From assembly GCA_036400975.1 (NCBI GenBank), contig DASWWL010000110.1:8550-72549 (forward strand): a DNA stretch of 64,000 bases, written 5' to 3'. This document shows positions 12,680-64,000 of the stretch, one piece after another. The position numbers and the translations under genes were made by a program. Source of the stretch: Novosphingobium sp. Lineage in GTDB: Bacteria > Pseudomonadota > Alphaproteobacteria > Sphingomonadales > Sphingomonadaceae. Within the stretch, counting starts at the first letter, position 1. Each line of letters opens with the position of its first letter. Under the pieces are notes generated by a model. The model was not told the DNA's origin, did no database searches, and saw only the letters and a program-made list of their open reading frames with translations.

Positions 12680-12690
12680 CGGACTATCCT

Positions 12691-25164: not shown

Positions 25165-25209
25165 AGAGCACCAGCAGCAGCCACAAAATGTTGCTCTTTT
25201 TGGTGCTCT
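25165..25209. repeat. Putative integrase arm-type binding sites
   Basis: TGTTGCTCT-TTT-TGGTGCTCT direct repeat (25189-25209) plus inverted AGAGCACCA (25165-25173), between the tRNA and int. Confidence 0.55.
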
Positions 25210-25241
25210 CGGATCGACCCGGCTTTGCTGGGAAAACGACC

Positions 25242-46022: not shown

Positions 46023-46834
46023 GGCTGGACCTCCTTGGCGTTCTGGGTGGCAGGTGCCGCTAGGCCGGGATCGAGCGGCGAGCCGAGTGGCAGGTTCGAT
46101 GCAGGCGAGGCCATTGGAGCTGACCTCGAAGGTGAAGGGGATTGCGGCTCGTCATCGAGCTCCCGGCTCCAGTCGATCGCGTCGACGTAGATGCCGAGCG
46201 GATTGCGACGCAGCGTGTCGGCATCGACGGGAGGCTTGGTCACGATGGTGAGGATGGCCGTCCAGCGGCTGCTCCCAGCCCGTGCACCGCGCTCGAACAC
46301 GGTCTCGGTCCACTTGACCTGGAACGAGGTGTCGGAAGCCCGCACAACGCTCGTGACCTGGACCGATACCGTTCGCTCACCGATGCGGGCGAAAGGGTCG
46401 TTGCTGCGGGCGTAGTCGCCGAGGAACTGAGCCCCGCGCCTTGTTGCGAAGTCATAGGCCTCGAGCCAGCCGCGCTTCATCAGGACAGGGTCGAGCGACG
46501 CTGAGCGTACGTTCGTAATGACGCGGCCAAGGTGCCAGGCGATCTGCGGATCGGTTGGCTGGTAACCAGTGGCCGCCTCGCTGACGGCGCGGGCTTCGCC
46601 CAGTCGATCGACCTCCACCACATAGGGTACAACCCGGCTTTGCAGGGACTGCCAGAGAAGCCCCCCGGACAGACCCGCGGCGAGCCCCAGGCTTACGAAG
46701 GTCGCAAGACGCCAATTGCGTGCCTGCACCCGGGCCGAGCCGATCCGGTCGTCCCAGACCTGCCCCGCACGCTGGTATGGCGTCTCCGGAATTGGGGTGC
46801 GTCCATAGCGCTGGACGCTTCGCTTGAAGATCAT
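46019..46834 (-). CDS. trbF: TrbF/VirB8
   Basis: TPYQRAGQVWDDRIGSARVQARNWR, RNPLGIYV. Confidence 0.93.
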   Translation of the reverse strand: MIFKRSVQRYGRTPIPETPYQRAGQVWDDRIGSARVQARNWRLATFVSLGLAAGLSGGLLWQSLQSRVVPYVVEVDRLGEARAVSEAATGYQPTDPQIAWHLGRVITNVRSASLDPVLMKRGWLEAYDFATRRGAQFLGDYARSNDPFARIGERTVSVQVTSVVRASDTSFQVKWTETVFERGARAGSSRWTAILTIVTKPPVDADTLRRNPLGIYVDAIDWSRELDDEPQSPSPSRSAPMASPASNLPLGSPLDPGLAAPATQNAKEVQP

Positions 46835-46837
46835 GGC

Positions 46838-48139: not shown

Positions 48140-48269
48140 GGGCGTGGTCTTCCTGGATGGATTGGATGCCGCGGGGCGTGACTGGGGGTGGCCACGCCCC
48201 GCGGGCGGCGGGAGGCGCGGGAGGCTCGCCTTGCCGCCATGGCCGGGTCGGCTTTGAGCCGCGTGGGGG

Positions 48270-49016
48270 CTATTGCGGCGTGTAGGCCGACCCGGAGCCG
48301 AGGAACTTCTTCGTCGCGGCGCGCGCCTCGGCCCCTTGCGTCGCCCGGCGGGCCTGTTCCTGGGCCTCGGCCCGGAACTGGGCTGCCATCATCTGCTGGA
48401 TCTGGAACTGCTGCTTTGCCGTCAGGGCCAGCAGCTGGTTCGTCGCCTGCTGCGCTGCAAGCGATCCCTCGGCACCCTGGCTTCGCGACACGATGTCGGC
48501 GAGCGCCTGGGTGTCGTCCCGCACGTTCTCGACGACTTGCGACTGAACCGTCATCGTCTGGCGAAAGGCATCCATGCTCGCATCAAGCCGGCCGCGGGCG
48601 CCCTGCACGCGCTGGTCGGTTCGAAGGGCTGTCGCAAAGTCTTGCGGAAACAGTGATCGGAACCGGGCGTCGAGCTGATCGACCCGAAAATCGATACCCT
48701 GGGCCTGGCCCATGAGGCGGTCGATCTGGGCGAGCTTCTGCCGAAGGGCATCGAGCTGGGGAAAATCGATCCGGGAGAGGTTCTTGCCCATGTTGGCCAG
48801 CATCTGCGCCTCGTTCTGGAGCTGCCTGATCTGCTGGTTGACCTGCTGGAGCGTGCGCGCGGCGGTCAGGATGTTCTGGGCGTAGTTGCTCGGGTCGAAG
48901 ACCGAGATCTGTGCCTGGGCGGGCGCTGCGGGCAGGCCGAGTATGGCGCCCGCGACGCAGACCGATGCCAGGGCAAGGCTGCATGCGACGGCATGGGCGG
49001 GGGCAGGAATTCGCAT
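48270..49016 (-). CDS. trbJ: TrbJ/VirB5
   Basis: VFDPSNYAQNILTAARTLQQ, GSLAAQQATNQLLAL. Confidence 0.93.
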   Translation of the reverse strand: MRIPAPAHAVACSLALASVCVAGAILGLPAAPAQAQISVFDPSNYAQNILTAARTLQQVNQQIRQLQNEAQMLANMGKNLSRIDFPQLDALRQKLAQIDRLMGQAQGIDFRVDQLDARFRSLFPQDFATALRTDQRVQGARGRLDASMDAFRQTMTVQSQVVENVRDDTQALADIVSRSQGAEGSLAAQQATNQLLALTAKQQFQIQQMMAAQFRAEAQEQARRATQGAEARAATKKFLGSGSAYTPQ

Positions 49017-51460
49017 CAGGATTCTCCTTCTTCGGGGGACAGGGATTCGGGGGCCTGCGCCAGGAGGTCAGCCGCCCATTCGAGGCCAGCGGTGCGCAGG
49101 AAGCGGGCTGCGAAGTCGTGGGTGCCGCCCGCCTCGAGCAGCACGTCGATGCGGCCTTGCGTCGCGGCGTCGGAGGCAGCGCAGAATGCGAGCGCGACTG
49201 GCCCGAGCCCTAGCTCGAACAGCCGGTTCCCGCGGGCCGACTGGAGGTAGTACTGGCGCTTGGGCGTTGCTCTCGCGACCAGTTCGACCTGTCGGTCATT
49301 GAGGCCGAACTGCTCGTAGATGCTGCGGGATTGTGGTTCGATCGCCCGGTCGTTGGGGAGCAGGATGCGCTGCGGGCAGCTTTCGATGATGACGGGCGCA
49401 ATCGACGACCCCGCAATGTCGGCGAGGCTCTGCGTGGCAAAGACCACCGACACGTTCTTCTTGCGCAGGACCTTGAGCCATTCCCGAATCCGGGCAGCGA
49501 ACAGCGGATGGTCGAGGAATATCCAGGCCTCGTCGAGGATGAGCAGTGTCGGGCGCCCGTCGAACCGCTCCTCGAGGCGGTGGAAGAGATAGGACAGCAC
49601 CGGGGCGACCACGCCGGCCTGGCCCATCAGGGCCTCCGTCTCGAAGCATTGCATGTCGGCAAGCTCGAGGCCCTGCTCGGCGGCATCGAGCAGGCGCCCA
49701 TAGGGGCCGTCGAGCGTATAGGGTTGCAAGGCCGTGCGCAGGGCATTGGACTGCAGCAGCAGCGCGAGACCGGTCATCGTCCGCTGCTCCGCTGGTGCGG
49801 TGGCGAGACTGCCCAGCGCCGACCAGAGCATATCCTTTACGTCCGGCGTGACCGCGACCTTCTCGTGCTCGAGCAGGGCTGCGATCCATTCTGCTGCCCA
49901 GCTGCGCTCGAGGGGCCGGTCGATCCCGGCCAATGGCTGGAAGGCGAGCGCCTTGCCCTCGTCGCTGCCCAGGGCATGGTGGATGCCGCCGCAGGCGAGA
50001 ACGGCGGCGCGCGCGGAAAAACCCTTGTCGAAGATATAGACCTGTGCACCCTCGTATCTCCGGAACTGGAGCGCGAGGGTAGCGAGGAGCACGGACTTGC
50101 CCGCTCCCGTGGGGCCCACGACCAGCATGTGGCCGACATCCCCGACGTGCGTCGACAGGCGGAACGGCGTCGAGCCGGCCGTGCTGGCGAGGAGCAGCGG
50201 CGGCCCATCGAGATGATCGTTGCGGCGGGGCCCCGCCCATGTGCCCGCAAGCGGCATGAGGTGCGCAAGGTTGAGCGTATGGACGAGCGGCTGCCGAACG
50301 TTGGCGTAGGACTGGCCCGGAAGCGAGGAGAGCCACGCCTCGACGGCATTCACGCCCTCGCGAATGGTCGTGAAGCCAAGGCCATTGACGATGCGCTCGA
50401 CGGCGCGGAGCTTTTCCTCGACCGCGCCCCGGTCCCGGTCGCTCACCGTGATCGTCGTGGTCAGGTAGCCGAATGCGACATGGTCCTGCCCGAGCACCTG
50501 CAGCGCTTCGTCGGCATCGACGACCTTGTTGTCCGCATCGCTGTCGAGCAGCTGCGCCGGTTGGTTGTAGAGGACCTCGCGCAGCAGGGCGCTGACCGAC
50601 TTGCGCTTGTTGAACCACTGCCGACGGATTCCGGTCAGCGTCCTGGTTGCCTCTGCCTTGTCGAGCGCAATGAAGCGCGTGACCCAGCGATAGGGCAGGC
50701 CGAGGTGATTGAGCGCGTCGAGGATGCCCGGCCGGCTCATGTTCGGGAAGCCCAGCACGCTTAGCGTTCGCATGTGGCTCGCCCCGAGCATCGGCTCGAG
50801 CCCACCCGTCAGCGGGGTATCGACCAGCATCGCGTCGAGATAGACCGGCGTTTCCGGCACACAGACCGGATGCCGCTTTTCCGAAATGCACCCGTGGAGG
50901 AAGGTCAGCGTCTCGCTGTCGTCCAGTGCACGGACCTTGGGCATGAAACCCGAGAGGAGGTCTGCCACGCGGTCCGTCTCGGCCACGAAGCCCGACAGCG
51001 CCCCTCGCCAGTCCCGTGCTCCGCCGGCATCCGGCCGGTCGACGAGCGTGCGCCCGGCGCTGTCCACGGCATCGGCGGCAGGCAGCCATTGCAGGGTCAG
51101 GTGGTAGCGGCTCTCGAAATGCACGCCCTCTGCCTCGAAGGCCGCGCGGCGCTCGCGATCGACAAGGGCGCTGGCCGGATCCGGGAACCTGCTTGCAGGA
51201 TAGCCGGGAGCAGCCACCCGCTCGGCATCGAAGAACATCGCCCAGCCACTGCCAAGGCGCTTGAGGACATTGTTCGCTCGCGCGCAGGCACCGATCAGTT
51301 CGACCTCGGTCGCGGACTCAAGGTCTGGCCCGCGAAAGGCGAGCGTGCGCTGGAAGCTTCCGTCCTTGTTGAGCACGATGCCTGGTCCAACCAGGGCTGC
51401 CCACGGCAGGTGATCGGCAAGCCGGTCGGCGCGCGACCGATATTCGGCAAGGTTCAGCAT
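49016..51460 (-). CDS. trbE: TrbE/VirB4 ATPase
   Basis: LNKDGSFQRT, GPTGAGKS, ILDEAW, FATQSLADI. Confidence 0.95.
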   Translation of the reverse strand: MLNLAEYRSRADRLADHLPWAALVGPGIVLNKDGSFQRTLAFRGPDLESATEVELIGACARANNVLKRLGSGWAMFFDAERVAAPGYPASRFPDPASALVDRERRAAFEAEGVHFESRYHLTLQWLPAADAVDSAGRTLVDRPDAGGARDWRGALSGFVAETDRVADLLSGFMPKVRALDDSETLTFLHGCISEKRHPVCVPETPVYLDAMLVDTPLTGGLEPMLGASHMRTLSVLGFPNMSRPGILDALNHLGLPYRWVTRFIALDKAEATRTLTGIRRQWFNKRKSVSALLREVLYNQPAQLLDSDADNKVVDADEALQVLGQDHVAFGYLTTTITVSDRDRGAVEEKLRAVERIVNGLGFTTIREGVNAVEAWLSSLPGQSYANVRQPLVHTLNLAHLMPLAGTWAGPRRNDHLDGPPLLLASTAGSTPFRLSTHVGDVGHMLVVGPTGAGKSVLLATLALQFRRYEGAQVYIFDKGFSARAAVLACGGIHHALGSDEGKALAFQPLAGIDRPLERSWAAEWIAALLEHEKVAVTPDVKDMLWSALGSLATAPAEQRTMTGLALLLQSNALRTALQPYTLDGPYGRLLDAAEQGLELADMQCFETEALMGQAGVVAPVLSYLFHRLEERFDGRPTLLILDEAWIFLDHPLFAARIREWLKVLRKKNVSVVFATQSLADIAGSSIAPVIIESCPQRILLPNDRAIEPQSRSIYEQFGLNDRQVELVARATPKRQYYLQSARGNRLFELGLGPVALAFCAASDAATQGRIDVLLEAGGTHDFAARFLRTAGLEWAADLLAQAPESLSPEEGES

Positions 51461-51741
51461 GCGAGGTAGCCTTTCTGCCGCAGGTGCCGGACGAGCACCG
51501 GGGCGAAGTCTGGATCACGCCGGGCTGCGAGGACGGCGAGGCTGTGCCCCGCCGCCCAGAGCACCATCCCGGCCAGCCATTGCTGGAGGCCCAGCCCGAC
51601 GGCGGCAGCTAGCGTGCCGTTGACGATGGCAATGCCGCGCGGGGCACCGCCGAGCAGGATCGGACTGCCAAGCGAGCGATGGATTGGCGCCTCGAAGCCC
51701 TCGATGTGGCCGCCGGCAAAATGATGGACGATGCCGCTCAT
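51454..51741 (-). CDS. trbD: TrbD/VirB3
   Basis: IHRSLGSPILLGGAPR...RRDPDF; ATGA overlap with trbC. Confidence 0.88.
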   Translation of the reverse strand: MSGIVHHFAGGHIEGFEAPIHRSLGSPILLGGAPRGIAIVNGTLAAAVGLGLQQWLAGMVLWAAGHSLAVLAARRDPDFAPVLVRHLRQKGYLAC

Positions 51742-52073
51742 GCGATGAGGGCCCCGCCGCCGAAGCTGAAGAAGGAGAGGAAGAAGCTCGACGCGGCAAA
51801 GGCGATCGACAGCCCGAAGACGATCTGGATCAGGCGGCGGAAGCCGCCAGCCGTCTCGCCGAACGCGAGCGTGAGACCGGTGACGATGATGATGATCACC
51901 GCGACGATCTTCGCGACGGGGCCCTGCACCGACTCCAGAACCTGCTGCAACGGCTCTTCCCATGGCATGCCGGAACCCGCCGCATGCGCCTGCACAGAGA
52001 CCATGAGGGAAGTGGCAAGGGCAGCGACGGCCGCCAGCGTGGACGACGTCGGGATACGGGTAGGCTTGGTCAT
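51738..52073 (-). CDS. trbC: TrbC/VirB2 pilin
   Basis: GSGMPWEEPLQQVLESVQGPVA, GLSIAFAASSF. Confidence 0.92.
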   Translation of the reverse strand: MTKPTRIPTSSTLAAVAALATSLMVSVQAHAAGSGMPWEEPLQQVLESVQGPVAKIVAVIIIIVTGLTLAFGETAGGFRRLIQIVFGLSIAFAASSFFLSFFSFGGGALIA

Positions 52074-53077
52074 GAGGCATCTCCTTCGGGTTGGGCATTG
52101 AGAAGATCGGCAAGCTCGTAGGCACCGGAGCGAGGTTCCAAGCCGGTGATCCGCGCTACCGCGGCCACCCTGCGGCCAGCGCCGCGACCAGCGATGAAGA
52201 CGATGATGTCGATGGCCTCGGCAATGAGCTGCCGCGGCACGGTGACCACGGCCTCCTGGACGAGCTGTTCGATCCGGGTGAGCGCTGCGCGGGCCGAGTT
52301 TGCGTGGACCGTGGCGATACCGCCGGGATGCCCGGTGTTCCAAGCCTTGAGCATGTCGAGCGCTTCCGGGCCGCGCACCTCGCCAACCACGATACGGTCG
52401 GGCCTCAGTCGCATCGTCGAACGCACAAGGTCGGTCATCGACGCCGCTCCCGCCCTGGTCCGCAGCGCGACCGTGTCAGGCAGCGGGCATTGCAATTCCC
52501 GGGTGTCCTCGATGAGGATGACGCGGGCATCGACACTGGCCATCTCTGCAAGCAGGGCATTGGCGAGCGTCGTCTTGCCCGAACTGGTGCCGCCGGCGAC
52601 GAGGATGTTGAGCCGGTCGGCCACCGCCGTGCGCAGCAACCTTGCCGCTTCAGCCGGCATGATGCCCTCGGCGACATAGTCCTCAAGCAGGTGCAGCCGC
52701 TCGGCAGGCTTGCGGATGGAAAAGCACGGAGCTTCGGAAACAGGCGGAAGCACGCCTTCGAAGCGTTCGCCCGCGCGCCCTTCGGCATGGGGCGGCAACT
52801 CCGCCGAGATCACGGGCCTGTCTCCATGGATCTCGGCGCGGGCATGGCTGGCGACGAGGCGGATGATGCGCTCGACTTGCACGGACGGGATCCGCACGCC
52901 GGTGTCGATGCGGCCTTCGCCAAGGCGGTCGAGCCGCAGGGCGCCGTCCGGGTTGACCATGATCTCCTGGGTCCGGGGATCGGCGAGCGCCGAAGCGATC
53001 TCCAGCCCCATCGCGGTCCTCAGCATTGCGCGGCGTCGCGCGCTCGAAAGGACGGCCGGATCATCCTGCGCGCTCAC
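52070..53077 (-). CDS. trbB: TrbB/VirB11 ATPase
   Basis: EIMVNPDG, GGTSSGKT, MRLRPDRIVVGEVRG, WNTGHPGG. Confidence 0.95.
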   Translation of the reverse strand: MSAQDDPAVLSSARRRAMLRTAMGLEIASALADPRTQEIMVNPDGALRLDRLGEGRIDTGVRIPSVQVERIIRLVASHARAEIHGDRPVISAELPPHAEGRAGERFEGVLPPVSEAPCFSIRKPAERLHLLEDYVAEGIMPAEAARLLRTAVADRLNILVAGGTSSGKTTLANALLAEMASVDARVILIEDTRELQCPLPDTVALRTRAGAASMTDLVRSTMRLRPDRIVVGEVRGPEALDMLKAWNTGHPGGIATVHANSARAALTRIEQLVQEAVVTVPRQLIAEAIDIIVFIAGRGAGRRVAAVARITGLEPRSGAYELADLLNAQPEGDAS

Positions 53078-53471: not shown

Positions 53472-55520
53472 TCAAAAATCCAGCTGGAGGTCGTCGGGAC
53501 GGGGCGTCCCGGCATCGAGCGCGTAGACGGCCCGCGCCGCTCCAAGTCCCTGGACCCGATCCATGGCCCGGCGCTCGGCAGCCTGGTCCCCATCGTCGTC
53601 GGCCAGGCCAAGGGGATCGGCGACCTCTGCGTCCGGCAGTGCGACGGCCTCAATCTCGTGCGCGGGGTGGCGAGCCTGCTCCAGCCCGCCGGCATCGGCG
53701 CCGTCATCAAGGTCAAGGCGGCCACCGAGCCGTTCGTCAGCGCTGCGGAGCTGTCCCGCCCAGTCGTCGCCGCGCCGCGGCGGCAGGTCCTGGTACGCGC
53801 CAGGAGCCAGTGTGGGTGCAGGCAGCACGCGCGCGGCAAGGCGCTTGTCCTCATAGTAGCGCAGCTTGCTGGCGCGCACCGGCGGATGGCCCGAGACCAG
53901 CACGAGCTCATCCTTGTGGCTAAGCTGCATGACCTCACCCGGCGTCAGCAGCGCGCGGGCAGTCTCCTGGCGGCTGACCATGACGTGGGCGAGCCAGGGT
54001 GCGAGGCGGTGGCCAGCATAGTTGCGCATGGCCCGCTGCTCGGTGGCAGTGCCAAGGGCGTCAGAGATGCGCTTCGCGGTGCGCTCGTCATTGCTGGCGA
54101 AGGCAATGCGCAAGTGGCAATTGTCGAGGATGGCGTTGTGCTCGCCATAGGCCTTCTCGATCTGGTTGAGGCTTTGCGCGATGAGGAAGGCGCGCACCCC
54201 GTACCCAGCGAGGAAGGCGAGGCTCGTCTCGAAGAAGTCGAGGCGGCCCAGTGCGGGGAATTCGTCGAGCATCATGAGAAGCCGGTGACGGTTACCGCGC
54301 ACGGTGGCTTGGCCTGCGGCGCCCTCCGCCTGCAGCTGCTCGGTCAGCCGGCGACCGATCTGGTTGAGGATGAGCCGAACCAGCGGCTTGGTGCGGCTGA
54401 TGTCCGATGGCGGCACGACAAGGTACAAGGAAACCGGATTCCTGGCCTCGACCAGGTCGGCAACCCGCCAGTCCGAGGCGCTCGTCACGGCAGCGACAGT
54501 CGGGTCGCGGTAAAGACCGAGGAAGGACATGGCGGTGGAGAGGACGCCCGAGCGCTCGTTCTCGCTCTTGTTGAGGAGTTCGCGTGCGGCCGAGGCGACA
54601 ACGGGATGCACGCGCGGCGCGGCTTCGCTGCCAAGGTGGTTGGTCGCCATCATGCGCCGCAAGGTCGCGGTGAATGGGCGCTGCGGGTCCGATAGGAAGG
54701 TGGCGACCCGGGCGAGCGTCTTCTCCTCTTCCGCATAGAGGACATGGAGGATCGCGCCCACCAGCAGCGAATGGCTGGTCTTTTCCCAGTGGTTACGCCG
54801 CTCGAGCGCCCCTTCGGGATCGACCAGGATATCGGCGATGTTCTGGACGTCGCGAACCTCGTCGATGCCGCGGCGAACCTCCAGCAGCGGATTGTAGCGG
54901 GCCGAGCGGGCGTCGGTCGGGTTGAACAGGAGGCAGTGGGAGAAGCGCTGGCGCCAGCCGGCGGTCAGCTGCCAGTTCTCCCCCTTGATGTCGTGGATCA
55001 CGGCCGAACCGGTCCAGCCGAGCAGCGTAGGTACGACAAGGCCCACGCCCTTGCCCGAGCGGGTCGGCGCGAATGCCATGATGTGCTCGGGGCCGTCGTG
55101 GCGCAGATAGCGCGCGCCGAGCCGGCCAAGGATTACGCCGCGCTCATCCAGCAGGCCTGCGGCAGCGACGTCCCGCAGGCCTGCCCAGCGCGCCGAACCG
55201 TAGGTCGTTACATTGCTCGATTGCCGCGCGCGCCAGACCGACCCGAAAATGGCAGCTCCGCAGCCGAACAGGCCACCTGCCGCCGCGATTGCACCCGCCT
55301 CGTCGAAGACGACCGGCGCATAGGCGTCGAAGTGGAACCACCAGACGAAGATCGACCAGGGATGGTAGATCGGCACCCCGAGCACGAGGAGCCAGGGTTC
55401 GCCAAGCTGCGGCTGGTATGCGAGGGCCGCCGCCGCCCATTGGGTGGCAGACCATATGCCCGCGACGATGATCGCGAGCACGACAAGGATCTGTCCTATG
55501 AGCAGCTTGGTCGGGGTCAT
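53472..55520 (-). CDS. traG: TraG/VirD4 coupling protein
   Basis: APTRSGKGVG, HDIKGEN, MLDEFPALG, IAQSLNQI. Confidence 0.95.
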   Translation of the reverse strand: MTPTKLLIGQILVVLAIIVAGIWSATQWAAAALAYQPQLGEPWLLVLGVPIYHPWSIFVWWFHFDAYAPVVFDEAGAIAAAGGLFGCGAAIFGSVWRARQSSNVTTYGSARWAGLRDVAAAGLLDERGVILGRLGARYLRHDGPEHIMAFAPTRSGKGVGLVVPTLLGWTGSAVIHDIKGENWQLTAGWRQRFSHCLLFNPTDARSARYNPLLEVRRGIDEVRDVQNIADILVDPEGALERRNHWEKTSHSLLVGAILHVLYAEEEKTLARVATFLSDPQRPFTATLRRMMATNHLGSEAAPRVHPVVASAARELLNKSENERSGVLSTAMSFLGLYRDPTVAAVTSASDWRVADLVEARNPVSLYLVVPPSDISRTKPLVRLILNQIGRRLTEQLQAEGAAGQATVRGNRHRLLMMLDEFPALGRLDFFETSLAFLAGYGVRAFLIAQSLNQIEKAYGEHNAILDNCHLRIAFASNDERTAKRISDALGTATEQRAMRNYAGHRLAPWLAHVMVSRQETARALLTPGEVMQLSHKDELVLVSGHPPVRASKLRYYEDKRLAARVLPAPTLAPGAYQDLPPRRGDDWAGQLRSADERLGGRLDLDDGADAGGLEQARHPAHEIEAVALPDAEVADPLGLADDDGDQAAERRAMDRVQGLGAARAVYALDAGTPRPDDLQLDF

Positions 55521-55756
55521 GCGGGCCTCCGCCCGCCGCCGACTCATTCGTTGGCGGGCAGCCCCAAGCATCGGGCCAACCGCCTCCTGGCATCAGTCAC
55601 CAGCGGGTGCCGCGAAGGACCTCCCTGGTGCCATCGCGATTACGCCGGCTGGCTCGTGTGTCCAGCGAGATTGTATCATGGCGCTCGTCCGCCAGTTTCA
55701 ACGCGAGTTCCGGTCTACAGATCCAAGATCACAGATGAGCTAAATTTATATGCTAC

Positions 55757-55771: not shown

Positions 55772-55840
55772 TAATGGTTCTGCAATTTTGGTCGAACCTT
55801 AGCAACCACGCGGGTCAAACTCGGATTGCCTTCCACTGCC

Positions 55841-56905
55841 ATGACACTCCTCGCCGCTTTCCATCGCTGGACCGGGGGGCTTATCGGCCTCTTGTTGGCG
55901 ATGCTGGGCCTGTCCGGCGCAATCCTCGTCCACAAGGACGAGTGGGTGGCGCTGCCCCATGCGTCCGACGCACAAATCCAAGATACTGCACATCTGGCGG
56001 ACCTCACGCAGCGGATCATGGAAGACCCGGCAACCCGGCCGGAATCAATCCTCTTCGCAACCAAGGATTTTGGACTGGATCGGTTGACCTACAAGGGCGG
56101 CGCGGGCGCCTATGTCGATCAGAACGGCGGCTTCGTGGCGCGATGGACCAGCCAGTGGGAACGACCGGAAATCTGGTTGTTCGACTTTCATCACCATCTC
56201 TTCGCCGGAGAGACCGGTGAAATCATCATCGGCATCGCCGCAGTCTTCGGCCTGTTCTTCGTAGTGACTGGCGCATTGCTGTGGTGGCGGACGCGCAGGA
56301 CCTATTCGTTCCGTCTTTGACCAGCCCGGATGAGCCGGCCAGCGATCATTCGGCATCACCGCGATCTCGGCATCATCATGGCACCGCTGCTAGCTCTCTC
56401 GCTCCTGACCGGAGCGGTACTGGTATTCCGTCCGTTGTCGGCGCCTCTCTTCGGTCCCGGCGCCCTAGCCCAGATCGAACGCGCGCTATCCGAACCAGCG
56501 TCACCCCCGGCAGGTCTCGCTGAGGGGTTGCGGTGGTCGGCAATGATTGAAACGGCGCGGCGGCGCTTTCCTCAAGCCGAGGTTCGAAGCCTCTCCCTGC
56601 CGCGCCAAGGCAACGGTCTTATCACCTTGCGCATGCGCAGTCCTGAAGAATGGCTGCCGAACGGGCGCACGACATTGTGGTTCGCGGCGGACAGCGGCGC
56701 GCTGGTGGCTACCCGCGACGCCAGGAATCTGCCGCCTGCCGCACGCGGATATAATCTTCTCTATCCGCTTCATGCGGCAAAGGTTGGAGGTTTTCTGTAT
56801 CGGCTCACGATGACGTTGTCCGGGCTGACCTTGACGCTGTTGGGAACGCTCGCAGTGTGGGTCTTCTGGTTCCGGCGCCTTGCGCCGGTACGTGGCGCTG
56901 GCTGA
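55841..56905 (+). pseudogene. PepSY-associated TM protein interrupted by an in-frame stop
   Basis: AFHRWTGG...FDFHHHLF...RHHRDLG...PLHA; the two track ORFs are in frame, separated by TGA at 56318-56320 (FRL*PARMSR). Confidence 0.88.
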
Positions 56906-56980: not shown

Positions 56981-58201
56981 TCAAGGATAGCTACCCTCGG
57001 GCTCGATATCCCAAACCAGCGCAGCAATCGCTTCCTTCAACGCATGCTCCAACATAGCGTTGCCAGACGCACTTACGCTCAGGACGCCAAGATAGTCCTT
57101 GTTGGAGTTCGTTATCGCAACGCGTTCGCCAACTTTTCGCAGCGCTCGGTATTCGACGCGCAGATCGCGGTCTTCGCGAAGGAAACTTTCGGGCGCCGAG
57201 ACAATCCGCCCCGCACTGACGGCCGGAAAATATCGGATCGCGGCGACTTTGGTCGCCAAGGGGATCGCGCCAAGCGGTTCGCCAAGATGCAGACGCAGAA
57301 TTCTCTCAAACAACGCAACGTCGAGGGTATGCTCCAACATGAATTCCATGTGGTCGCCGACTGTGCGGTAGTTGATTTCGATTAGCCGTGGCCCGTTGTT
57401 CGTCAGCACGAACTCAGTGTGGCACGATCCGAATCCGACCCCCACCGCTTCGATCTGACGTAGCACCTCGGTCCTCTGCGACGAGGTGAGGCAGTTGTCC
57501 CAGCGTCCCTCCATCTCGACGAAACTGGGTGGCGGCCCCAGCGCGACATGGAATCCCCCGAGAACAAGGATATCCGATCCATCGCCCAGAGTTTCGAGCG
57601 TGTAGAGCTCTCCCGCAATATATTCCTCGATCAGCATGGCGCGGCCCCCCTCCATGCCCCAGACATGCCGGGCGTGCGAGACGAGCGCGTCCTCGTGCTC
57701 GCACAGCCGCACGAGTTGGCTGCCAACGCCTTCGCGAGGTTTGAGCACGCAAGGAAAGGGAATATCGGAAAGACGAGCGATTTCGTCTTCGTTCGTCACC
57801 ACGGCGTGCCACAGGAGGTCCACTCCCCGATCCCGCAGGCATTCACGCATCGCTGCCTTGTTCTTGGCTCGGTAGGTGACTTTCCAGTCCTTGCCGGGCA
57901 GACCGAAATAGTCAGCCGCCAGCGCAGTGCTGGTTTGCAAATGATCGCTGTTCGAAAAGATGGCGGCGGGCCTGTCGGCATGGCGGCTGATTTCGCTGAT
58001 GACCGCGACCGGATTGAACACGTCGCATTCGATGATGCTGTCAGGACAGGCGGGTCGACCCTCAACTGAGAAGTAGCGTCGATGCGCTTCCGCCTGGTCG
58101 GTAAGCAGGGTCACGCTGAGGCCTAGACGTCGCGCCGCTGGGAGAAAGCCCTCGTTGACCGCATCTGTCGGCACATGGGCTAGCAACATCAGGGTCGGCA
58201 T
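56981..58201 (-). CDS. ATP-grasp ligase, PvsA (vibrioferrin)-like
   Basis: LAHVPTDAVNEGFLPAA resembles the recalled PvsA N-terminus; KNKAAMR, LKPREG, EEYIAGE, HTEF, IEINYR. Confidence 0.8.
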   Translation of the reverse strand: MPTLMLLAHVPTDAVNEGFLPAARRLGLSVTLLTDQAEAHRRYFSVEGRPACPDSIIECDVFNPVAVISEISRHADRPAAIFSNSDHLQTSTALAADYFGLPGKDWKVTYRAKNKAAMRECLRDRGVDLLWHAVVTNEDEIARLSDIPFPCVLKPREGVGSQLVRLCEHEDALVSHARHVWGMEGGRAMLIEEYIAGELYTLETLGDGSDILVLGGFHVALGPPPSFVEMEGRWDNCLTSSQRTEVLRQIEAVGVGFGSCHTEFVLTNNGPRLIEINYRTVGDHMEFMLEHTLDVALFERILRLHLGEPLGAIPLATKVAAIRYFPAVSAGRIVSAPESFLREDRDLRVEYRALRKVGERVAITNSNKDYLGVLSVSASGNAMLEHALKEAIAALVWDIEPEGSYP

Positions 58202-58265
58202 CGACAGTCCTTTCGTAGTTCGTATTTTTGCGAGCGCTGCCCGCCGGCAAGTAACCTGCTATTAA

Positions 58266-58280
58266 TGCAATTGACTCGCA
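58266..58280. promoter_or_regulatory. Putative Fur-type box between the ATP-grasp gene and sbnA
   Basis: TGCAATT-G-ACTCGCA imperfect 7-1-7 in an AT-rich divergent gap. Confidence 0.55.
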
Positions 58281-58387
58281 ATAGCGAATCAATTTATGTC
58301 GTTGGAGCGGGCCGGAAAATCACGAGCTGGCCTGACTACCCGCAGCGGCTACGACGCCGCACTCCCATCCGCTTGGAAGGAGCCGCA

Positions 58388-59482
58388 ATGCAATCTTCAG
58401 CAGAAATGTCCGTCGGCAACACGCCGCTTGTTGCCTTGGACCGCATGTTTCCGCCCGACGAGGTTCCAGTCTTCGCTAAGCTCGAGATGCTGAATGTCGG
58501 CGGCAGCGTGAAGGATCGCACCGCGCACTACATGGTGTCGCAGGCCTTGGCCGCGGGTAGGATCACATCAGAAAGCCACCTTGTGGAGAGTTCATCCGGC
58601 AATCTCGCCATAGCGCTCGCCATGATCGCCAAGCGGGAGGGCATTCCCTTCACTGCGGTGGTCGATCCCAACCTTGCCCCCGCCAATCGCTGCCTCATCG
58701 AAGCCTTTGGCGGGCAGATCGATCTGGTGACGGAGAAGGACGAGGGCGGCGGTTATCTGCACACCCGCATCCGGCGGGTGGATGAACTGGTACGCACCAT
58801 TCCGGGCGCGGTCTGGCTCAACCAATATGCCAATCCGGATAACTGGCGCGCCCATTACAATGGGATTGGCGAGGAGATCGTCCGCGAGATGCCCGTCGAG
58901 CCGACGCATGTGGTCGCGGCCGTCTCAACCTGCGGGACATTGATGGGTCTGGCGCGTCGTCTGCGCGAGCGCTGGCCGAACATCGAGGTTGTCGCGGTCG
59001 ATCTGGAAGGGTCCGTCATCTTCGGAGGGGCGGGCGGGAACAGGCAGATCCCGGGCATCGGCGCGAGCCGCGTGCCGGAGCAGCTCGCCCTGCCAGAGGT
59101 GGACGCCGTCATCTATGCGACGGACTGGGAATCGACGCTAGCCTGCCGCCGCCTCGCGGAAAGCCAGGGCATATTGGCCGGCGGCTCGTCGGGCACGGTC
59201 ATGGCGGCGATCACCAAGTTGATTCCAAACCTTCGCAAAGGATCCTGTATCGTCACCCTGCTGCCTGATCGTGGCGAACGCTATCTCGATACGGTCTATG
59301 ATCCCGACTGGCCGGCCCAGGAACGCCGCCTCACCCGGCCTTTCGCAGCGTCCTTCCGCCGGTTGGGTGAACGACCATCGATCGTGCGGCAGTCCCGGAG
59401 CACAAGCGCGGCCGCGTCTTCATGGATGCCAACCGCCCATGTTCTGCCCGTCCCGATGTTGTCGGAAGGGGCAGCGATATGA
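58388..59482 (+). CDS. sbnA: L-2,3-diaminopropionate biosynthesis protein SbnA-like (PLP)
   Basis: KLEMLNVGGSVKDR, ESSSGN, NQYANPDN; coupled to an SbnB-like gene; GGAG RBS. Confidence 0.88.
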   Translation: MQSSAEMSVGNTPLVALDRMFPPDEVPVFAKLEMLNVGGSVKDRTAHYMVSQALAAGRITSESHLVESSSGNLAIALAMIAKREGIPFTAVVDPNLAPANRCLIEAFGGQIDLVTEKDEGGGYLHTRIRRVDELVRTIPGAVWLNQYANPDNWRAHYNGIGEEIVREMPVEPTHVVAAVSTCGTLMGLARRLRERWPNIEVVAVDLEGSVIFGGAGGNRQIPGIGASRVPEQLALPEVDAVIYATDWESTLACRRLAESQGILAGGSSGTVMAAITKLIPNLRKGSCIVTLLPDRGERYLDTVYDPDWPAQERRLTRPFAASFRRLGERPSIVRQSRSTSAAASSWMPTAHVLPVPMLSEGAAI

Positions 59483-60489
59483 CAACGGCTACTCTGCGAT
59501 ACTTGTCCCGTTCGGACGTCGCTGCGCTCGGTGGCGACCATTCGGATCTCTATATGAGCGCGATCGAGGCGGGCTTCCGCAGCCATGCCGCCGGCGACTT
59601 CGTGCAGCCGCTCAAACCCTATCTGCGCAGCCCCCGTACCCAGCATATCGCGGATCGCATCATCGCGATGCCGGCCTGGATCGGCGGGGAGCAACCCGTT
59701 GCGGGACTCAAATGGATTGGCTCCAAGCACGACAACCCGGCCAGAAGAGGGATGGAGCGGGCGAGCGCCGTCATCGTGCTCAACGATCCGGAGACCAACT
59801 ATCCCATGGCGATCATGGAAGGCGGACTGCTGAGCGCGATGCGGACCGCCGCCGTCACCGGTGTTGCGACACGGCACCTGGCGCGGAAGAACTTCGAGGA
59901 AGCTGCGATCATCGGCTGTGGGCCGATTGCCGAACGGCAAGCGCAGATGTTGCTCGAGCAGTTTGCAGACGTGAAGGCACTGCGGCTGTTCGATCTGCGC
60001 GAAGACGCCGCACACGCGCTCGCCGCCCGGCTTCGCCAGCGTTTCGGCGACCTCGTCATTGCCGTCACGAAAAGCGCGGAAGCAGCAGTTCGCGACTGTC
60101 CGGTGGTGATCACCTGCACCGTGACCGACAAGCCTTATCTCGCTTTCGACTGGCTCAGCAAAGGCACGTTCCTGGCCAATGTTTCGATCATGGATGTGGA
60201 ACGCGATGTGTTCCTCAAGGTCGACAAGGTCGTTGTCGACGACTGGGACCAGTCCAACCGCGAGAAGAAGATCATCAACCTGCTGGTCGAAGCAGGCGAG
60301 TTTTCGCGCGAGCGACTGCATGCGGAGCTTGGCGAGATCATCGTCGGGTCCAAGCCCGGTCGTGAGACGGATGACGAGATCATTCTGCTGAATCCGATGG
60401 GCATGGCGATCGATGATATCGCCTGCGCAAAGGCGATCCTCGGCAGGGCTGAGGACAGGAACATCGGTACGGTCCTGCCCCTCTTCTAG
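59479..60489 (+). CDS. sbnB: SbnB-like ornithine cyclodeaminase family protein
   Basis: QPLKPYL, DRIIAMPA, KWIGS, SAMRTAAV, GCGPIA, NPMGMAIDDIA. Confidence 0.9.
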   Translation: MTTATLRYLSRSDVAALGGDHSDLYMSAIEAGFRSHAAGDFVQPLKPYLRSPRTQHIADRIIAMPAWIGGEQPVAGLKWIGSKHDNPARRGMERASAVIVLNDPETNYPMAIMEGGLLSAMRTAAVTGVATRHLARKNFEEAAIIGCGPIAERQAQMLLEQFADVKALRLFDLREDAAHALAARLRQRFGDLVIAVTKSAEAAVRDCPVVITCTVTDKPYLAFDWLSKGTFLANVSIMDVERDVFLKVDKVVVDDWDQSNREKKIINLLVEAGEFSRERLHAELGEIIVGSKPGRETDDEIILLNPMGMAIDDIACAKAILGRAEDRNIGTVLPLF

Positions 60490-60564
60490 GGGCGATGCTT
60501 CGTCGCCGGCCTGTATGCGCCAGCCGTCGCTTCCATTTCTTCCCATCATCGAGAGATCCGTCTG

Positions 60565-62265
60565 ATGACGTTGCCCCTGCCTGTGGAGAGAACAGCCGAA
60601 GATGCCGCCGTCATCCGCGCCGGTATCGCGATGGAGCGCCTGCTCAATACATGGCTGCGGGAACGCATGACCGAATCCGTGCCGGTCGAGGGCGAGGCCT
60701 GCATCTTGAACATGGGCGCGAACAGGCTGCGCGCCTCGTGTCAGCGGGTATCGCCGGGAGGTTTCCATCGCTGGCAGTTCCCCGTGCTGGTCGAACAAGC
60801 CGATGGGGCCGCAACTGCGACGGATGACCCTGTTCTCATCGCAAGCCTGATGGCAGATGCGCTTGCACAGGAAAATGGCTCTATCTCGTCTACGATCAAG
60901 GAGCGCCTCATCAAGGCGCTCGATGGCGCGGAGGAGCACGCTCTGGCCTGCGCGGCGCGTCCTTTCGATCCATCCCCACTGGGACTGGAGCAGAGCCTCT
61001 GGCACGGGCATCCATTCCATCCCTTTGCCAAAAGCATAGATGGCTTTTCAGTCGACGATATCGACCGTTATGCGCCGGAGCGCACCCATAGTTTTCAGTT
61101 GCGCTGGATCATCGCCGAGCCCGATGTCGGGGCGGCGTTGTGGCGCGACAGGCGGGCTCAGGAGCGGGGCAACCGCATCCTCGCCGATCTCTCCGGGCTG
61201 CCGGACAATGCAATCGGCGGCCGCCTTCTGATTCCGAGCCACCCCTGGCAGGCCGCGCGCCTCGAAACCGATCCATTATTCGCTGATCTCGTCGCGCGGG
61301 GGCGCGCGATCCTCACCTTGCCCACCGGCGCGACGGTGCAGCCGACGTCATCGGTTCGCACCGTGTTCGCGCCCAGCGCCAATATGTTCCTCAAGCTCCC
61401 GATTGCGGCCCGAATCACCAATTTCGCGCGCACCAACCCGCGCGACCAGATCGCCCGAAGCATGGCGGCCGCGCAGGCGCTTGCGGCGGTTGCGGAACAG
61501 GTCGCCGCCTGCGGACTCGACACGCTCGATGAGCCCGGCGCCGTCTGGATCGATCGTCCTGACCTCGAAGCAATTACCGCCGTCGTCCTGCGCGATGCGC
61601 CTCGGCGAGAGGCATTCGTGCTGGCTGGCCTGCTCGAGCCATCGCCGAACAATGGCCGCCCGATGCTAGAGGCCATGGGCTGCGGCTTTTCCGGTCTCGC
61701 CGCGGCGCAAGCCTGGCTACACGCTTACGTCCAGACGGCCATACTCCCGCCGCTGCGCCTGTTCGCCAGAACGGGCGTCAGCCTCGAAGCGCACAGCCAA
61801 AACAGCCTTCTGGAGTTGGACCGGGGAACTCCAGCCCGCCTGATCGTGCGCGACCTGGAAGGGGTCAGCATAGATCGCGAGCGCTTCGAACGCATCGCGC
61901 CGAGGCTGGAACTCAATCCATCGGTATTCTTCCTCGCCGAGGAAGCGCGCCGACGCCTGGCCTACTACCTGATCAGCAATCAGTTGAACCATGTGGTCGC
62001 GGCAGTCTCGCGTCTCGCTGATGCGCCGGAAGGCGACCTCTGGCGCTCCATTACCGAGGCATTGTCCACCGCCGCCGAGGACAGCTCCACCGCTAGCCTC
62101 GTCGCCTGGCTTCTCGAAGCGGAAACCTTGCCCGCCAAAGCGAATTTCACGAGCTGTTTCGCCGGTCGCGGGGAACGGCCCGATTATGTCGAGATACCCA
62201 ATCCCCTCCGACCTGCGATGCGGGATGGATATGCACTGCAGCAATCGACGGTGGCGCTAACATGA
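60565..62265 (+). CDS. IucA/IucC NIS siderophore synthetase, probably type A-like
   Basis: EQSLWHGHPFHPFAK, HPWQ, PTSSVRTV, RITNFARTN, EAHSQN, VRDLEG. Confidence 0.9.
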   Translation: MTLPLPVERTAEDAAVIRAGIAMERLLNTWLRERMTESVPVEGEACILNMGANRLRASCQRVSPGGFHRWQFPVLVEQADGAATATDDPVLIASLMADALAQENGSISSTIKERLIKALDGAEEHALACAARPFDPSPLGLEQSLWHGHPFHPFAKSIDGFSVDDIDRYAPERTHSFQLRWIIAEPDVGAALWRDRRAQERGNRILADLSGLPDNAIGGRLLIPSHPWQAARLETDPLFADLVARGRAILTLPTGATVQPTSSVRTVFAPSANMFLKLPIAARITNFARTNPRDQIARSMAAAQALAAVAEQVAACGLDTLDEPGAVWIDRPDLEAITAVVLRDAPRREAFVLAGLLEPSPNNGRPMLEAMGCGFSGLAAAQAWLHAYVQTAILPPLRLFARTGVSLEAHSQNSLLELDRGTPARLIVRDLEGVSIDRERFERIAPRLELNPSVFFLAEEARRRLAYYLISNQLNHVVAAVSRLADAPEGDLWRSITEALSTAAEDSSTASLVAWLLEAETLPAKANFTSCFAGRGERPDYVEIPNPLRPAMRDGYALQQSTVALT

Positions 62266-63458
62266 CGCTGTTGAGGCCAAGCGCCGCGCAAGTCGCCGCC
62301 CTGGTGGACAGCGAACGGCCGATCTGCGCCTTCCTGCACGATCTCGATGCGCTGCGGCGGCACGTGCTGGAAGTGGTGAGGTCGCTGCCGCCCCGGGCGG
62401 AGCTGTTCTATGCCGTCAAGGCCAACAACGACGCCCGGATATTGCGAACGCTCGCGCCGCAGGTTGCCGGATTCGAGGTCGCCTCGTCGGGCGAAATCCT
62501 GAAAGTGCGCGATGCGGTCGGCTCCGGCGCCCGGATCATCATGGGCGGACCCGCTCGCACGCGCGAGGATGTCGAACTGATCCTGGCGCAGGGTGTCGAA
62601 CGGCTCCATGTGGAAAGCCTGCACACGTTGCGCCTCGCGAACGCCGTTGCGGCACAGGCGGGTGCGGTCCTGCCCATATTGCTGCGTGTGAACTTTGCCG
62701 GCCCAGTGCCGGGAGCAACCCTCACCATGGGAGGAGCGGCAACCCAGTTCGGCATCGCGCAATCCGATATCCCCGACGTCCTGGAACTGCTGGCGCATTG
62801 TCCGGCGCTGCGGTTCGAGGGATTCCATTTCCACACGGTCTCGAACAATCGCGATGCTGCCGGACATGCTGCGCTCTGCGCGACGGAACTCGATCTCGCT
62901 CGATCCTGGGCAAACGAGCATGGTCTGGACTTGGCGGTAGTCAATCTCGGCGGTGGCTGGGGTGTCGACTATGGCGATCCGGACTGGCGGTTCGACGTGG
63001 AAGGCTTCACCCGCGCGCTCACACCACATGTAGCTGGCGATCTGCGCCTGCAATTCGAATGCGGCCGGATTCTCGCCGCCTATCATGCCGTCTATGTCTG
63101 CGAGATTCTCGACATTAAGGCCGTCCATGGACGTGCCTTCGCCTTGCTGCGTGGAGGCACCCACCATTTCCGGCTGCCGAGTTCATGGGCGCACAACCAT
63201 CCATTCGTGATCCTGCCTCGCGATTCCTGGCCATATCCCTGGCCTCGCCCCGAATGCACCCACACCGATCTCACGCTCGCCGGTGAGCTATGTACCCCCA
63301 AGGATGTGCTTGCCCGCGACGTGCCCGTTGCGCGGGCGCGGATCGGCGATCTCGTCTGCTTCCTGATGGCGGGTGCCTATGGCTGGGATATCTCCCATCA
63401 TGACTTCCTGTGCCACGCCCATCCCGAGCGCATCTATCTGAACGAGGCGGAGGCATGA
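62262..63458 (+). CDS. Fold-type III PLP decarboxylase (SbnH/PvsE-like)
   Basis: FYAVKAN, FEVASSGE, NLGGG, ECGR, GGTHHFR, GELCTPKD, GAYG. Confidence 0.9.
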   Translation: MTLLRPSAAQVAALVDSERPICAFLHDLDALRRHVLEVVRSLPPRAELFYAVKANNDARILRTLAPQVAGFEVASSGEILKVRDAVGSGARIIMGGPARTREDVELILAQGVERLHVESLHTLRLANAVAAQAGAVLPILLRVNFAGPVPGATLTMGGAATQFGIAQSDIPDVLELLAHCPALRFEGFHFHTVSNNRDAAGHAALCATELDLARSWANEHGLDLAVVNLGGGWGVDYGDPDWRFDVEGFTRALTPHVAGDLRLQFECGRILAAYHAVYVCEILDIKAVHGRAFALLRGGTHHFRLPSSWAHNHPFVILPRDSWPYPWPRPECTHTDLTLAGELCTPKDVLARDVPVARARIGDLVCFLMAGAYGWDISHHDFLCHAHPERIYLNEAEA

Positions 63459-63565
63459 GCACGGTGATCAGCTCACCTTTTCAACTATTTGGGAGACGCG
63501 AAACGCGGCGCGGCCTCGCCGCCATCCTTGACTTCGATCGCAACGCCACTCTAACAGCTCAGATA

Positions 63566-63580
63566 TGCGAACGATTCGCA
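63566..63580. promoter_or_regulatory. Putative Fur-type box upstream of the siderophore receptor
   Basis: TGCGAAC-G-ATTCGCA near-perfect 7-1-7, 25 bp before the ATG at 63605. Confidence 0.65.
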
Positions 63581-63604
63581 TTAGCAAATATTTGGGGGCG
63601 ACAC

Positions 63605-64000
63605 ATGCTTGCGACTACTATGAATACCCGGGCCGTTCGGAAACTCGGCACCGTCTCGATACTGGCTTTGCTTGCGGCAATGGCGTCATCACCAGCCTTT
63701 GGCGCGGAGAGCGCGGACGGCAAAGCTGCGGCAGCCGGTTCAGGCCGCGACGACATCGTGGTAACGGCCACGAACCCGGAATATCGCACCCCCGACACCA
63801 CGGCGTTGAAGATCGACGCGCCACTGCGCGACATCCCGCAGACGATCGACGTCATCCCCAGTCAGGTAATGCGCGATCAGCGTGCCTTGTCATTGCAGGA
63901 TGCGGTTAAGAACGTGGCCGGCATCGGCATGGCCACCGGAGACGGCCAGCGTGATCAGTTCGTGATCCGCGGCAATATCGCCTATGGTGACCTCTTTATC
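63605..64000 (+). CDS. TonB-dependent siderophore receptor (partial; continues beyond the right edge)
   Basis: Hand translation: signal peptide, DIVVTA, LKIDAPLRDIPQTIDVIP, LQDAVKNVAGI, FVIRG. Absent from the ORF track (no stop in the window). Confidence 0.9.
   Translation, partial: MLATTMNTRAVRKLGTVSILALLAAMASSPAFGAESADGKAAAAGSGRDDIVVTATNPEYRTPDTTALKIDAPLRDIPQTIDVIPSQVMRDQRALSLQDAVKNVAGIGMATGDGQRDQFVIRGNIAYGDLFI

Follow-up and report, generated by a model that had tools for sequence, protein, structure and literature searches.

Two described siderophore pathways are closest to the locus studied here. Vibrioferrin is composed of citrate, ethanolamine, alanine, and α-ketoglutarate (PMC5577590). 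Its pvsABCDE cluster is known from Vibrio parahaemolyticus and Marinobacter, and xssABCDE is the xanthoferrin cluster of Xanthomonas. Staphyloferrin B is encoded by sbnA-I in Staphylococcus aureus, with further clusters in Ralstonia, Cupriavidus, Agrobacterium, Methylobacterium, and Methylocystis, and the reactions of SbnA, SbnB, SbnE, and SbnH have been summarised (PMC9301485, citing Cheung et al. 2009). We analysed a 64,000-nt stretch of Novosphingobium sp. DNA (contig C110, positions 8550-72549; hereafter the window) from a 3.1-Mb genome in 204 contigs. Near the right end of the window, and in the 7 kb by which the contig extends past it, genes of both types stand side by side. We predict that they form a complete, iron-regulated cluster of nine genes for a siderophore made independently of nonribosomal peptide synthetases (NRPSs), with an amide analogue of vibrioferrin as its product. 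The probability of this reading is roughly 0.55 in our estimate, and we infer all of its chemical steps and the product from sequence and by analogy with the known pathways.

Gene content and lineage of the nine genes

Gene calls were based on a listing of open reading frames (ORFs) and on hidden Markov model (HMM) scans, and the starts were refined afterwards. The gene order is pvsA-like (divergent), sbnA, sbnB, NIS-1, decarboxylase, receptor, NIS-2, MFS, and PanB-like, where NIS stands for an NRPS-independent siderophore synthetase of the IucA/IucC family and MFS for a major facilitator superfamily protein. All nine ORFs are unbroken and have sensible starts, and 4-nt overlaps join sbnA to sbnB, NIS-1 to the decarboxylase gene, and NIS-2 to the MFS gene. 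The original prediction, made from the window, had described an sbnA-sbnB-NIS-decarboxylase operon, a divergent PvsA-like gene, and a downstream receptor, and all of these were found in the ORFs and HMM scans. It had also described one NIS enzyme and no exporter. This is literally true of the window, but it is an edge effect, since a second NIS gene and an MFS gene lie further right on the contig. The 7 kb beyond the window contain the remainder of the receptor gene, the second IucA/IucC synthetase gene, the MFS gene, and the PanB-like gene, and then LuxR/LuxI genes before the contig ends. An incomplete cluster is thus ruled out by the contig sequence, and the rightward genes are pvsB- and pvsC-like and do not continue a canonical sbn cluster. 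NIS-1 and NIS-2 are the only two IucA/IucC genes of the entire genome.

To assign the genes to lineages, clusters with a full canonical gene order served as orthology anchors (L004 and others for pvs; L088 and L089 for sbn), and not the S. aureus or V. parahaemolyticus sequences. SbnA and SbnB were 50-64% identical to their counterparts in two canonical sbn clusters; SbnA shared 59% identity with SbnA of a canonical Agrobacterium sbn cluster, and SbnB shared 63-64% with SbnB of canonical sbn clusters. The best matches of NIS-1 in the PDB were the type A enzymes IucA and AcsD. Its relatives outside the sphingomonads at 40-43% identity include a protein of Agrobacterium salinitolerans, and a Cupriavidus lacunae protein shares 35%; both are at the sbnE position of sbnA-B-C-D-E-F-G-H clusters. 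The nearest relative that is not from a hybrid locus is metagenomic, shares 57% identity, and lies in an sbnD-E-F-G-H context. This metagenomic relative (L110 1388-3889) is an NIS protein of 833 amino acids (aa) followed by a short NIS fragment, and it may be an SbnE/SbnF fusion or rearrangement of the kind reported from Methylobacterium aquaticum 22A (PMC9301485).

In a tree of 72 NIS sequences, the sphingomonad NIS-1 proteins fell within the SbnE clade (Shimodaira-Hasegawa-like approximate likelihood ratio test, SH-aLRT, 96) as sister to the Agrobacterium type (100), and PvsD formed its own clade (100). A careful tree of type A enzymes agreed in placing NIS-1 with SbnE and PvsD apart. Matches of NIS-1 to the PvsD position were weak (26-34% identity). 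An approximately unbiased (AU) test rejected a clade of NIS-1 and PvsD (ΔlnL 125, p = 2.7e-5; the grouping was named after a quick tree had been viewed), and thus the tree and the AU test rule out that NIS-1 is a diverged PvsD. The decarboxylase grouped as sister to SbnH of Agrobacterium (100/100), and the PvsE clade (98/99) did not include it; with the proteins at the PvsE position of canonical pvs loci it shared 41-51% identity. In the same NIS tree, NIS-2 was within the PvsB clade (SH-aLRT 99), with SbnC apart. Typing by phylogeny, a check suggested with the original prediction, gave a type A, SbnE-type enzyme for NIS-1 and a type B, PvsB-type enzyme for NIS-2.

These placements bear on whether the cluster might make ordinary vibrioferrin, with NIS-1 and the decarboxylase still using L-serine and with SbnA and SbnB supplying α-ketoglutarate or being passengers. 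In favour of this, five genes out of nine belong to the pvs lineage. However, SbnE- and SbnH-type enzymes have taken the place of both PvsD and PvsE. Moreover, in this and the other hybrid loci sbnA and sbnB are always inherited together with the SbnE- and SbnH-type genes in a single operon whose stop and start codons overlap, and the SbnE-type enzymes in the loci we examined sit in clusters that also carry SbnA and SbnB. Ordinary vibrioferrin is thus a very improbable product.

The remaining genes of the siderophore locus resemble those of vibrioferrin clusters. The ATP-grasp ligase was 48-68% identical to the first-position ATP-grasp protein of clusters with the canonical pvsABCDE order (49-52% for Marinobacter loci), with full-length alignment in the 55-68% set. 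Its best matches in the PDB were L-amino acid ligases. Hundreds of relatives share 55-76% identity with it; a 56%-identical one in Cupriavidus necator belongs to a cluster in canonical pvsABCDE order (receptor, ATP-grasp, NIS, MFS, NIS, decarboxylase, and HpcH/HpaI aldolase genes) that has no sbnAB. In the ATP-grasp tree, the hybrid proteins formed one clade (99), sister to the canonical PvsA of Reyranella (97), which points to a single origin of the hybrid cluster. NIS-2 had the type B enzyme SbnC (7cbb) as its best PDB match. The MFS protein shared about 40% identity with the MFS proteins of six canonical pvs clusters, and no similarity was found between it and SbnD of sbn clusters. The receptor shared 51-56% identity with receptors adjoining betaproteobacterial pvs clusters, whereas sbn-cluster receptors gave short local matches only, at about 24%. 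Together these relationships indicate that sbnA-sbnB-sbnE-sbnH came from an alphaproteobacterial staphyloferrin-B-type cluster, and that the ATP-grasp gene, pvsB, pvsC, and the receptor gene came from a vibrioferrin-type cluster.

A second alternative concerns this latter half. The ATP-grasp enzyme might replace SbnF and add a second L-2,3-diaminopropionate (L-Dap), and the PvsB-type enzyme might act like SbnC on the diaminoethane amine, so that staphyloferrin B or a close analogue would be made. In favour of this, the cluster encodes SbnA and SbnB together with enzymes of the SbnE and SbnH types, and type B comprises SbnC as well as PvsB. A Sphingobium metagenome-assembled genome (MAG) also carries an automated "staphyloferrin B" annotation (PMC12857086), which may or may not refer to this cluster. 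Nevertheless, the ATP-grasp enzyme is nested among the PvsA proteins of canonical vibrioferrin-type clusters at the 55-68% identity given above, which speaks for an acyl substrate that has been conserved. Receptor and exporter, too, are of pvs type, with little or no similarity to their sbn counterparts, and the cluster has no orthologue of SbnF, SbnC, or SbnG in a genome with only two IucA/IucC genes. Therefore, we consider staphyloferrin B an unlikely product.

Predicted pathway, product, and iron regulation

If the enzymes act as their lineages suggest, SbnA, a pyridoxal phosphate enzyme, would convert O-phospho-L-serine and glutamate to N-(1-amino-1-carboxyl-2-ethyl)-glutamic acid (ACEGA) as the first step of L-Dap supply, and the NAD-dependent SbnB would release L-Dap and α-ketoglutarate. 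NIS-1 is predicted from sequence to be a citrate–L-Dap ligase and, as an SbnE-type type A synthetase, would form citryl-Dap, which the SbnH-type decarboxylase is predicted to turn into citryl-diaminoethane. The PvsA-type ATP-grasp enzyme would add an amino acid, by analogy L-alanine, to the free amine, giving an amide where vibrioferrin has an ester. NIS-2 is predicted to be an α-ketoglutarate-activating synthetase, and this PvsB-type type B enzyme would add the α-ketoglutarate cap. The PvsC-type MFS protein would export the product and the pvs-type TonB receptor would re-import the ferric complex. The predicted product, "aza-vibrioferrin", would have the formula C16H23N3O11 and an [M+H]+ of 434.14. 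The original prediction had proposed decarboxylation of citryl-Dap, acylation by the ATP-grasp enzyme, and an amide-linked vibrioferrin analogue; the phylogenies predict the same route, and we infer the product itself.

Taken more broadly, the product would be an undescribed carboxylate siderophore, an ethylenediamine-linked (all-amide) analogue of vibrioferrin that is possibly altered by the PanB-like enzyme, with a scaffold that arose by recombination of modules and was spread among plant and soil sphingomonads by integrative and conjugative elements (ICEs). In this wider form we hold the claim with somewhat better than even confidence, slightly above that in the narrower one.

Several points count against the aza-vibrioferrin route. 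NIS-2 is on a long branch (0.81) inside the PvsB clade, and its substrate may therefore have shifted. The identity of NIS-1 to SbnE proteins defined by their context is only 35-57%. The order of steps in canonical vibrioferrin synthesis was biochemically untested as of 2017 (PMC5577590), so that the roles of PvsA and PvsB rest on the structure of vibrioferrin, and the amino acid of the ATP-grasp step is assigned as alanine by analogy. Furthermore, the PanB-like gene is kept in every copy of the cluster and yet has no step in the proposed route.

The PanB-like gene sits after the MFS gene in every hybrid copy and its product is conserved at 75-93% identity. None of the canonical pvs and sbn loci that we examined has it, and an HpcH/HpaI (SbnG-like) gene is often found there instead. 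A housekeeping panB was ruled out for this gene, as it scored 75 bits against a cut-off of 272; other hybrid genomes have separate, weaker PanB-like matches elsewhere, and these are probably their housekeeping panB genes. The DS motif of PanB aligns and is invariant within the PanB-like subfamily. The equivalents of E. coli Asp84, Lys112/Glu114, His136, and Glu181, which we take to be metal and catalytic residues of PanB, also align and are conserved. An AlphaFold2 (AF2) model (mean predicted local distance difference test, pLDDT, 91.9) had PanB as its best fold match, with a target-normalised template modelling (TM) score of about 0.78. We inspected three relatives at 42-45% identity, and two of them adjoin aminotransferase genes in unrelated loci that look like secondary-metabolite loci, while the third does not. 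These aminotransferases are of class I/II (L106 6841-12133 and L107 1381-8987). The Streptomyces locus also contains an AurF-like N-oxygenase, and the other locus contains two ATP-grasp ligases, an MFS protein, and a desaturase. The PanB-like enzyme may substitute for SbnG in precursor supply, or its task may be to tailor one of the building blocks, an α-keto acid.

The product may thus have a scaffold of the aza-vibrioferrin type that is changed further, either because the PanB-like enzyme modifies an α-keto acid (e.g. by hydroxymethylation of α-ketoglutarate or pyruvate; +30.01 Da) or because the ATP-grasp enzyme uses an amino acid other than alanine; in both cases the carboxylate siderophore would be more novel still. 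In favour of this, every hybrid cluster has the PanB-like gene and the canonical pvs and sbn clusters examined lack it, the fold is PanB-like with its catalytic and metal residues retained, and the two aminotransferase contexts look like amino-acid-tailoring loci. On the other hand, the enzyme may serve precursor supply, replacing the HpcH/HpaI (SbnG-like citrate synthase) gene of canonical clusters, the cluster contains no aminotransferase, and the substrate of the PanB-like enzyme is not deducible from sequence. We regard a further-changed product as a possible, minority outcome, and the unmodified aza-vibrioferrin as the preferred prediction.

Regulation by iron is suggested by the 187-bp region between the pvsA-like gene and sbnA. 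It holds a 35-bp block, TGCAATTGACTCGCAATAGCGAATCAATTTATGTC, that hardly varies among all six hybrid loci, despite divergence of the flanking sequence. The block is a putative signature of an iron-responsive (Fur-type) operator, and from this operator we would expect iron repression of the cluster. Near-matches to its 19-bp core, GCAATTGACTCGCAATAGC, were found in the same genome just upstream of the receptor gene of the cluster, before a pair of genes for a TonB-dependent receptor (TBDR) and a PepSY_TM protein, before another TBDR gene, and before feoB (all genes confirmed by Pfam). Taken together, the GCAATTGACTCGCAATAGC sites give a candidate motif of the Fur regulon in this sphingomonad. 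The near-match sites are at C41:3498, C129:8368 and 10866, C48:10421, and C139:2687, and one of them precedes a 152-aa ORF without a Pfam match.

Distribution, mobile context, and neighbouring genes

An ATP-grasp profile was run against 185,579 species, each represented by a single genome. This gave 534 relatives, and we examined the best 80 loci by tblastn. Among these 80, every locus long enough to show its neighbours had the canonical pvs order, except four that had the layout of the window together with sbnAB. In the canonical loci, NIS-2 matched the PvsB position at 38-48% identity and the MFS protein matched PvsC at 34-44%. The four exceptions are from a Sphingobium MAG, Rhizorhapis suberifaciens DSM 7465, Sphingobium sp. 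R-21, and Sphingomonas pokkalii L3B27; the contig of the Sphingobium MAG is short and shows only sbnB, sbnA, and the ATP-grasp gene. A separate search found the identical layout in Sphingobium sp. Cam5-1. All nine genes are in identical order in Cam5-1, R. suberifaciens, R-21, S. pokkalii, and a metagenome contig (62% identity), and the proteins are kept at 62-93% aa identity over at least six genomes or contigs. The statement of the original prediction that neither canonical cluster has this combination of genes agrees with these best 80 of the 534 PvsA loci and with the two canonical sbn clusters.

The hybrid unit is sparsely distributed. Among 401 sampled genomes of the same family, NIS-1 was carried by the genome of the window and by Rhizorhapis only, and it was absent from each of six genomes of the same genus. 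The hybrid cluster was not on any plasmid in PLSDB, where the best matches were canonical sbn clusters on Methylocystis and Ralstonia replicons. In Rhizorhapis the nine genes are chromosomal, between ordinary metabolic genes, and on the metagenomic contig they adjoin a transposase gene; these two contexts delimit the unit as pvsA-like through PanB-like. The evidence points to a cluster that arose once, by the joining of two known pathways.

Carriage on an ICE, as originally predicted, was borne out by an integrase gene, Trb genes, TraG, and synteny with Cam5-1. To the left of the cluster there are a tyrosine integrase gene (25188-26471), cargo, the genes TrbI to TrbB (43996-53077), and TraG, with housekeeping genes further left. 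Between the genome of the window and Cam5-1, the type IV secretion system (T4SS) region shares 71-77% nucleotide identity and the siderophore unit 82% (compared spans: 43642-64000 of the window on to L001 15272, and Cam5-1 1685284-1710381). Transfer of the cargo between related ICEs may postdate the divergence of their backbones. Beyond the cluster, Cam5-1 encodes ArdC, ParB, and a DUF3363 protein, a family that we take to accompany relaxases, and these ICE-type genes indicate that the siderophore unit is internal ICE cargo in Cam5-1. In the genome of the window the contig ends 1.3 kb after the cluster, and the location of the unit inside an ICE with an IncP/Trb-type T4SS is supported by the sequence.

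Left of the pvsA-like gene is a PepSY_TM gene with an in-frame TGA at 56318-56320, and the two halves match PF03929 at positions 3-162 and 180-294. The orthologue in the Sphingobium MAG (L006) has TGG (Trp) at that codon. The interruption is due either to recent pseudogene formation or to a mistake in the assembly. An intact paralogue stands with a TBDR gene behind an iron box on contig C41, and no PepSY_TM gene was found beside the cluster in Cam5-1. The premature TGA in this neighbour and the draft state of the assembly (204 contigs) would suit a decaying or silent ICE passenger, with nothing made in this genome. Against this, the nine ORFs are intact, their proteins are conserved over the genomes and contigs listed above, the operator is conserved, and the cluster is the sole NIS system of the genome. 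We regard silence of the cluster as the least probable of the alternatives.

Genes for LuxR and LuxI, proteins of N-acyl homoserine lactone (AHL) quorum sensing, directly follow the unit in the genome of the window and in Sphingobium R-21 (78% and 66% identity). In Cam5-1 they also follow it, 4 kb away (LuxR at L102 4254-5024). Quorum sensing may thus be linked to the cluster or to the transfer of the ICE. Two further genes were noted in the window. One, just before the Trb genes in the ICE cargo, encodes an AbiEii-type nucleotidyltransferase toxin (type IV toxin–antitoxin system or abortive infection; 41689-42774, minus strand). The other (13026-15932, minus strand) lies in flanking chromosomal DNA to the left of the integrase gene of the ICE, and its 968-aa product has eight or more WD40 repeats. 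The features of the cluster and its immediate neighbours are collected in Table 1.

Table 1. Features of the siderophore locus and adjoining genes. Positions are those of the window; numbering is continued past its end at 64000, and L001 positions are given for the right part.
Feature	Position (strand)	L001 position	Evidence and remarks
IncP-type TraG coupling protein	53472-55571 (-)		NF010450, 1125 bits vs cut-off 674; PF02534; left neighbour, ICE backbone
PepSY_TM gene (FoxB/PiuB-like inner-membrane protein)	55826-56905 (+)		PF03929; accessory, outside the conserved nine-gene unit
pvsA-like ATP-grasp ligase, L-amino-acid-ligase type	56981-58201 (-)		PF02655, 37.8 bits, above cut-off
Operator block TGCAATTGACTCGCAATAGCGAATCAATTTATGTC	58266-58300		pvsA/sbnA divergent promoter; putative Fur-type iron box, core GCAATTGACTCGCAATAGC
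sbnA	58388-59482 (+)		TIGR03945 equivalog, 421.7 bits vs cut-off 349.95; ribosome-binding site GGAAGGAG precedes start
sbnB	59479-60489 (+)		TIGR03944 equivalog, 402.5 bits vs cut-off 326.9; start overlaps sbnA stop as ATGA
NIS-1, type A IucA/IucC synthetase, SbnE lineage	60565-62265 (+)		Tree, homologue position, AU test
SbnH-type fold-III pyridoxal phosphate (PLP) decarboxylase	62262-63458 (+)		PF02784, PF00278
Weaker second iron-box core GCGAACGATTCGCATTAGC	63567-63585		About 20 nt upstream of receptor start
TonB-dependent siderophore receptor	63605-65749 (+)	9155-11299	TIGR01783, 343.5 bits vs 223.5; window ends at 64000
NIS-2, type B IucA/IucC synthetase, PvsB lineage	65784-67583 (+)	11334-13133	PF04183, PF06276
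PvsC-like MFS exporter	67580-68764 (+)	13130-14314	PF07690
PanB-like enzyme (ketopantoate hydroxymethyltransferase family), 318 aa	68775-69731 (+)	14325-15281	PF02548, partial
LuxR; start of LuxI/TraI-type AHL synthase		15388-16203 (+); 16160 to contig end (16588)	PF03472, PF00196, PF00765; outside the nine-gene unit

Comparison with known siderophore systems

In our literature searches we found no description of this combination of genes or of a vibrioferrin derived from Dap, and the only trace was the automated "staphyloferrin B" call in the Sphingobium MAG mentioned above. Automated tools may label other such clusters in the same way. NIS pathways are usually regarded as a few fixed solutions that spread whole, and a 2026 preprint contrasts them in this respect with the recombination-driven diversity of NRPS pathways (10.1101/2025.03.09.642270). 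The cluster described here is a clear counter-example. The break and the rejoining of two characterised NIS pathways fell at a type of intermediate that both have (citryl-aminoethyl-X); the halves keep their lineage signals, and the result is mobile. The predicted natural product would be new and has a testable mass. The change from an ester to an amide should alter hydrolytic stability and may alter receptor specificity, which bears on who uses the siderophore in a community. Moreover, the PanB-like subfamily recurs in other loci that look like secondary-metabolite loci, and this cluster offers a tractable entry to its function.

Compared with the vibrioferrin cluster, the locus has in common a PvsA-type ATP-grasp ligase, a PvsB-type NIS synthetase, a PvsC-type MFS exporter, and a related TonB receptor, and the late steps are likely to be the same, namely the addition of an amino acid and then the α-ketoglutarate cap. 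It differs in that SbnE- and SbnH-type enzymes stand in for PvsD and PvsE and that sbnA and sbnB are added. In addition, the gene order is rearranged, with pvsA divergent and the receptor gene in the middle of the operon, and the PanB-like gene occupies the place of the HpcH/HpaI aldolase gene of some pvs clusters. The predicted linker is ethylenediamine, joined by an amide, whereas that of vibrioferrin is ethanolamine, joined by an ester.

The staphyloferrin B clusters share SbnA and SbnB, which pass the NCBIfam equivalog cut-offs here. The type A NIS enzyme of the locus belongs to the SbnE clade and its decarboxylase to the SbnH clade, with those of alphaproteobacterial sbn clusters as the nearest neighbours, and the predicted early intermediate, citryl-diaminoethane, would be identical. 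Unlike these clusters, the locus has no SbnF (type C NIS), no SbnC orthologue, no SbnD, and no Sir-type or sbn-type receptor. No SbnG (HpcH_HpaI) was found in the cluster, where the PanB-like gene takes its place; the rest of the genome was not searched for it. The ATP-grasp ligase, in turn, is in no sbn cluster examined.

Similar to this locus, the achromobactin cluster acsABCDEF uses a type A NIS enzyme and a PLP decarboxylase to reach a citryl-aminoethyl intermediate, followed by an α-ketoglutarate cap from a type B NIS enzyme. However, it uses serine/ethanolamine and 2,4-diaminobutyrate with three NIS enzymes, and it has neither an ATP-grasp ligase nor SbnA and SbnB. By its gene sequences the locus of the window fits neither parent, since PvsD and PvsE are lacking for a pvs cluster and SbnC, SbnF, SbnG, and SbnD for an sbn cluster. 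It is a new NIS pathway recombinant of two known pathways and not a new category of system.

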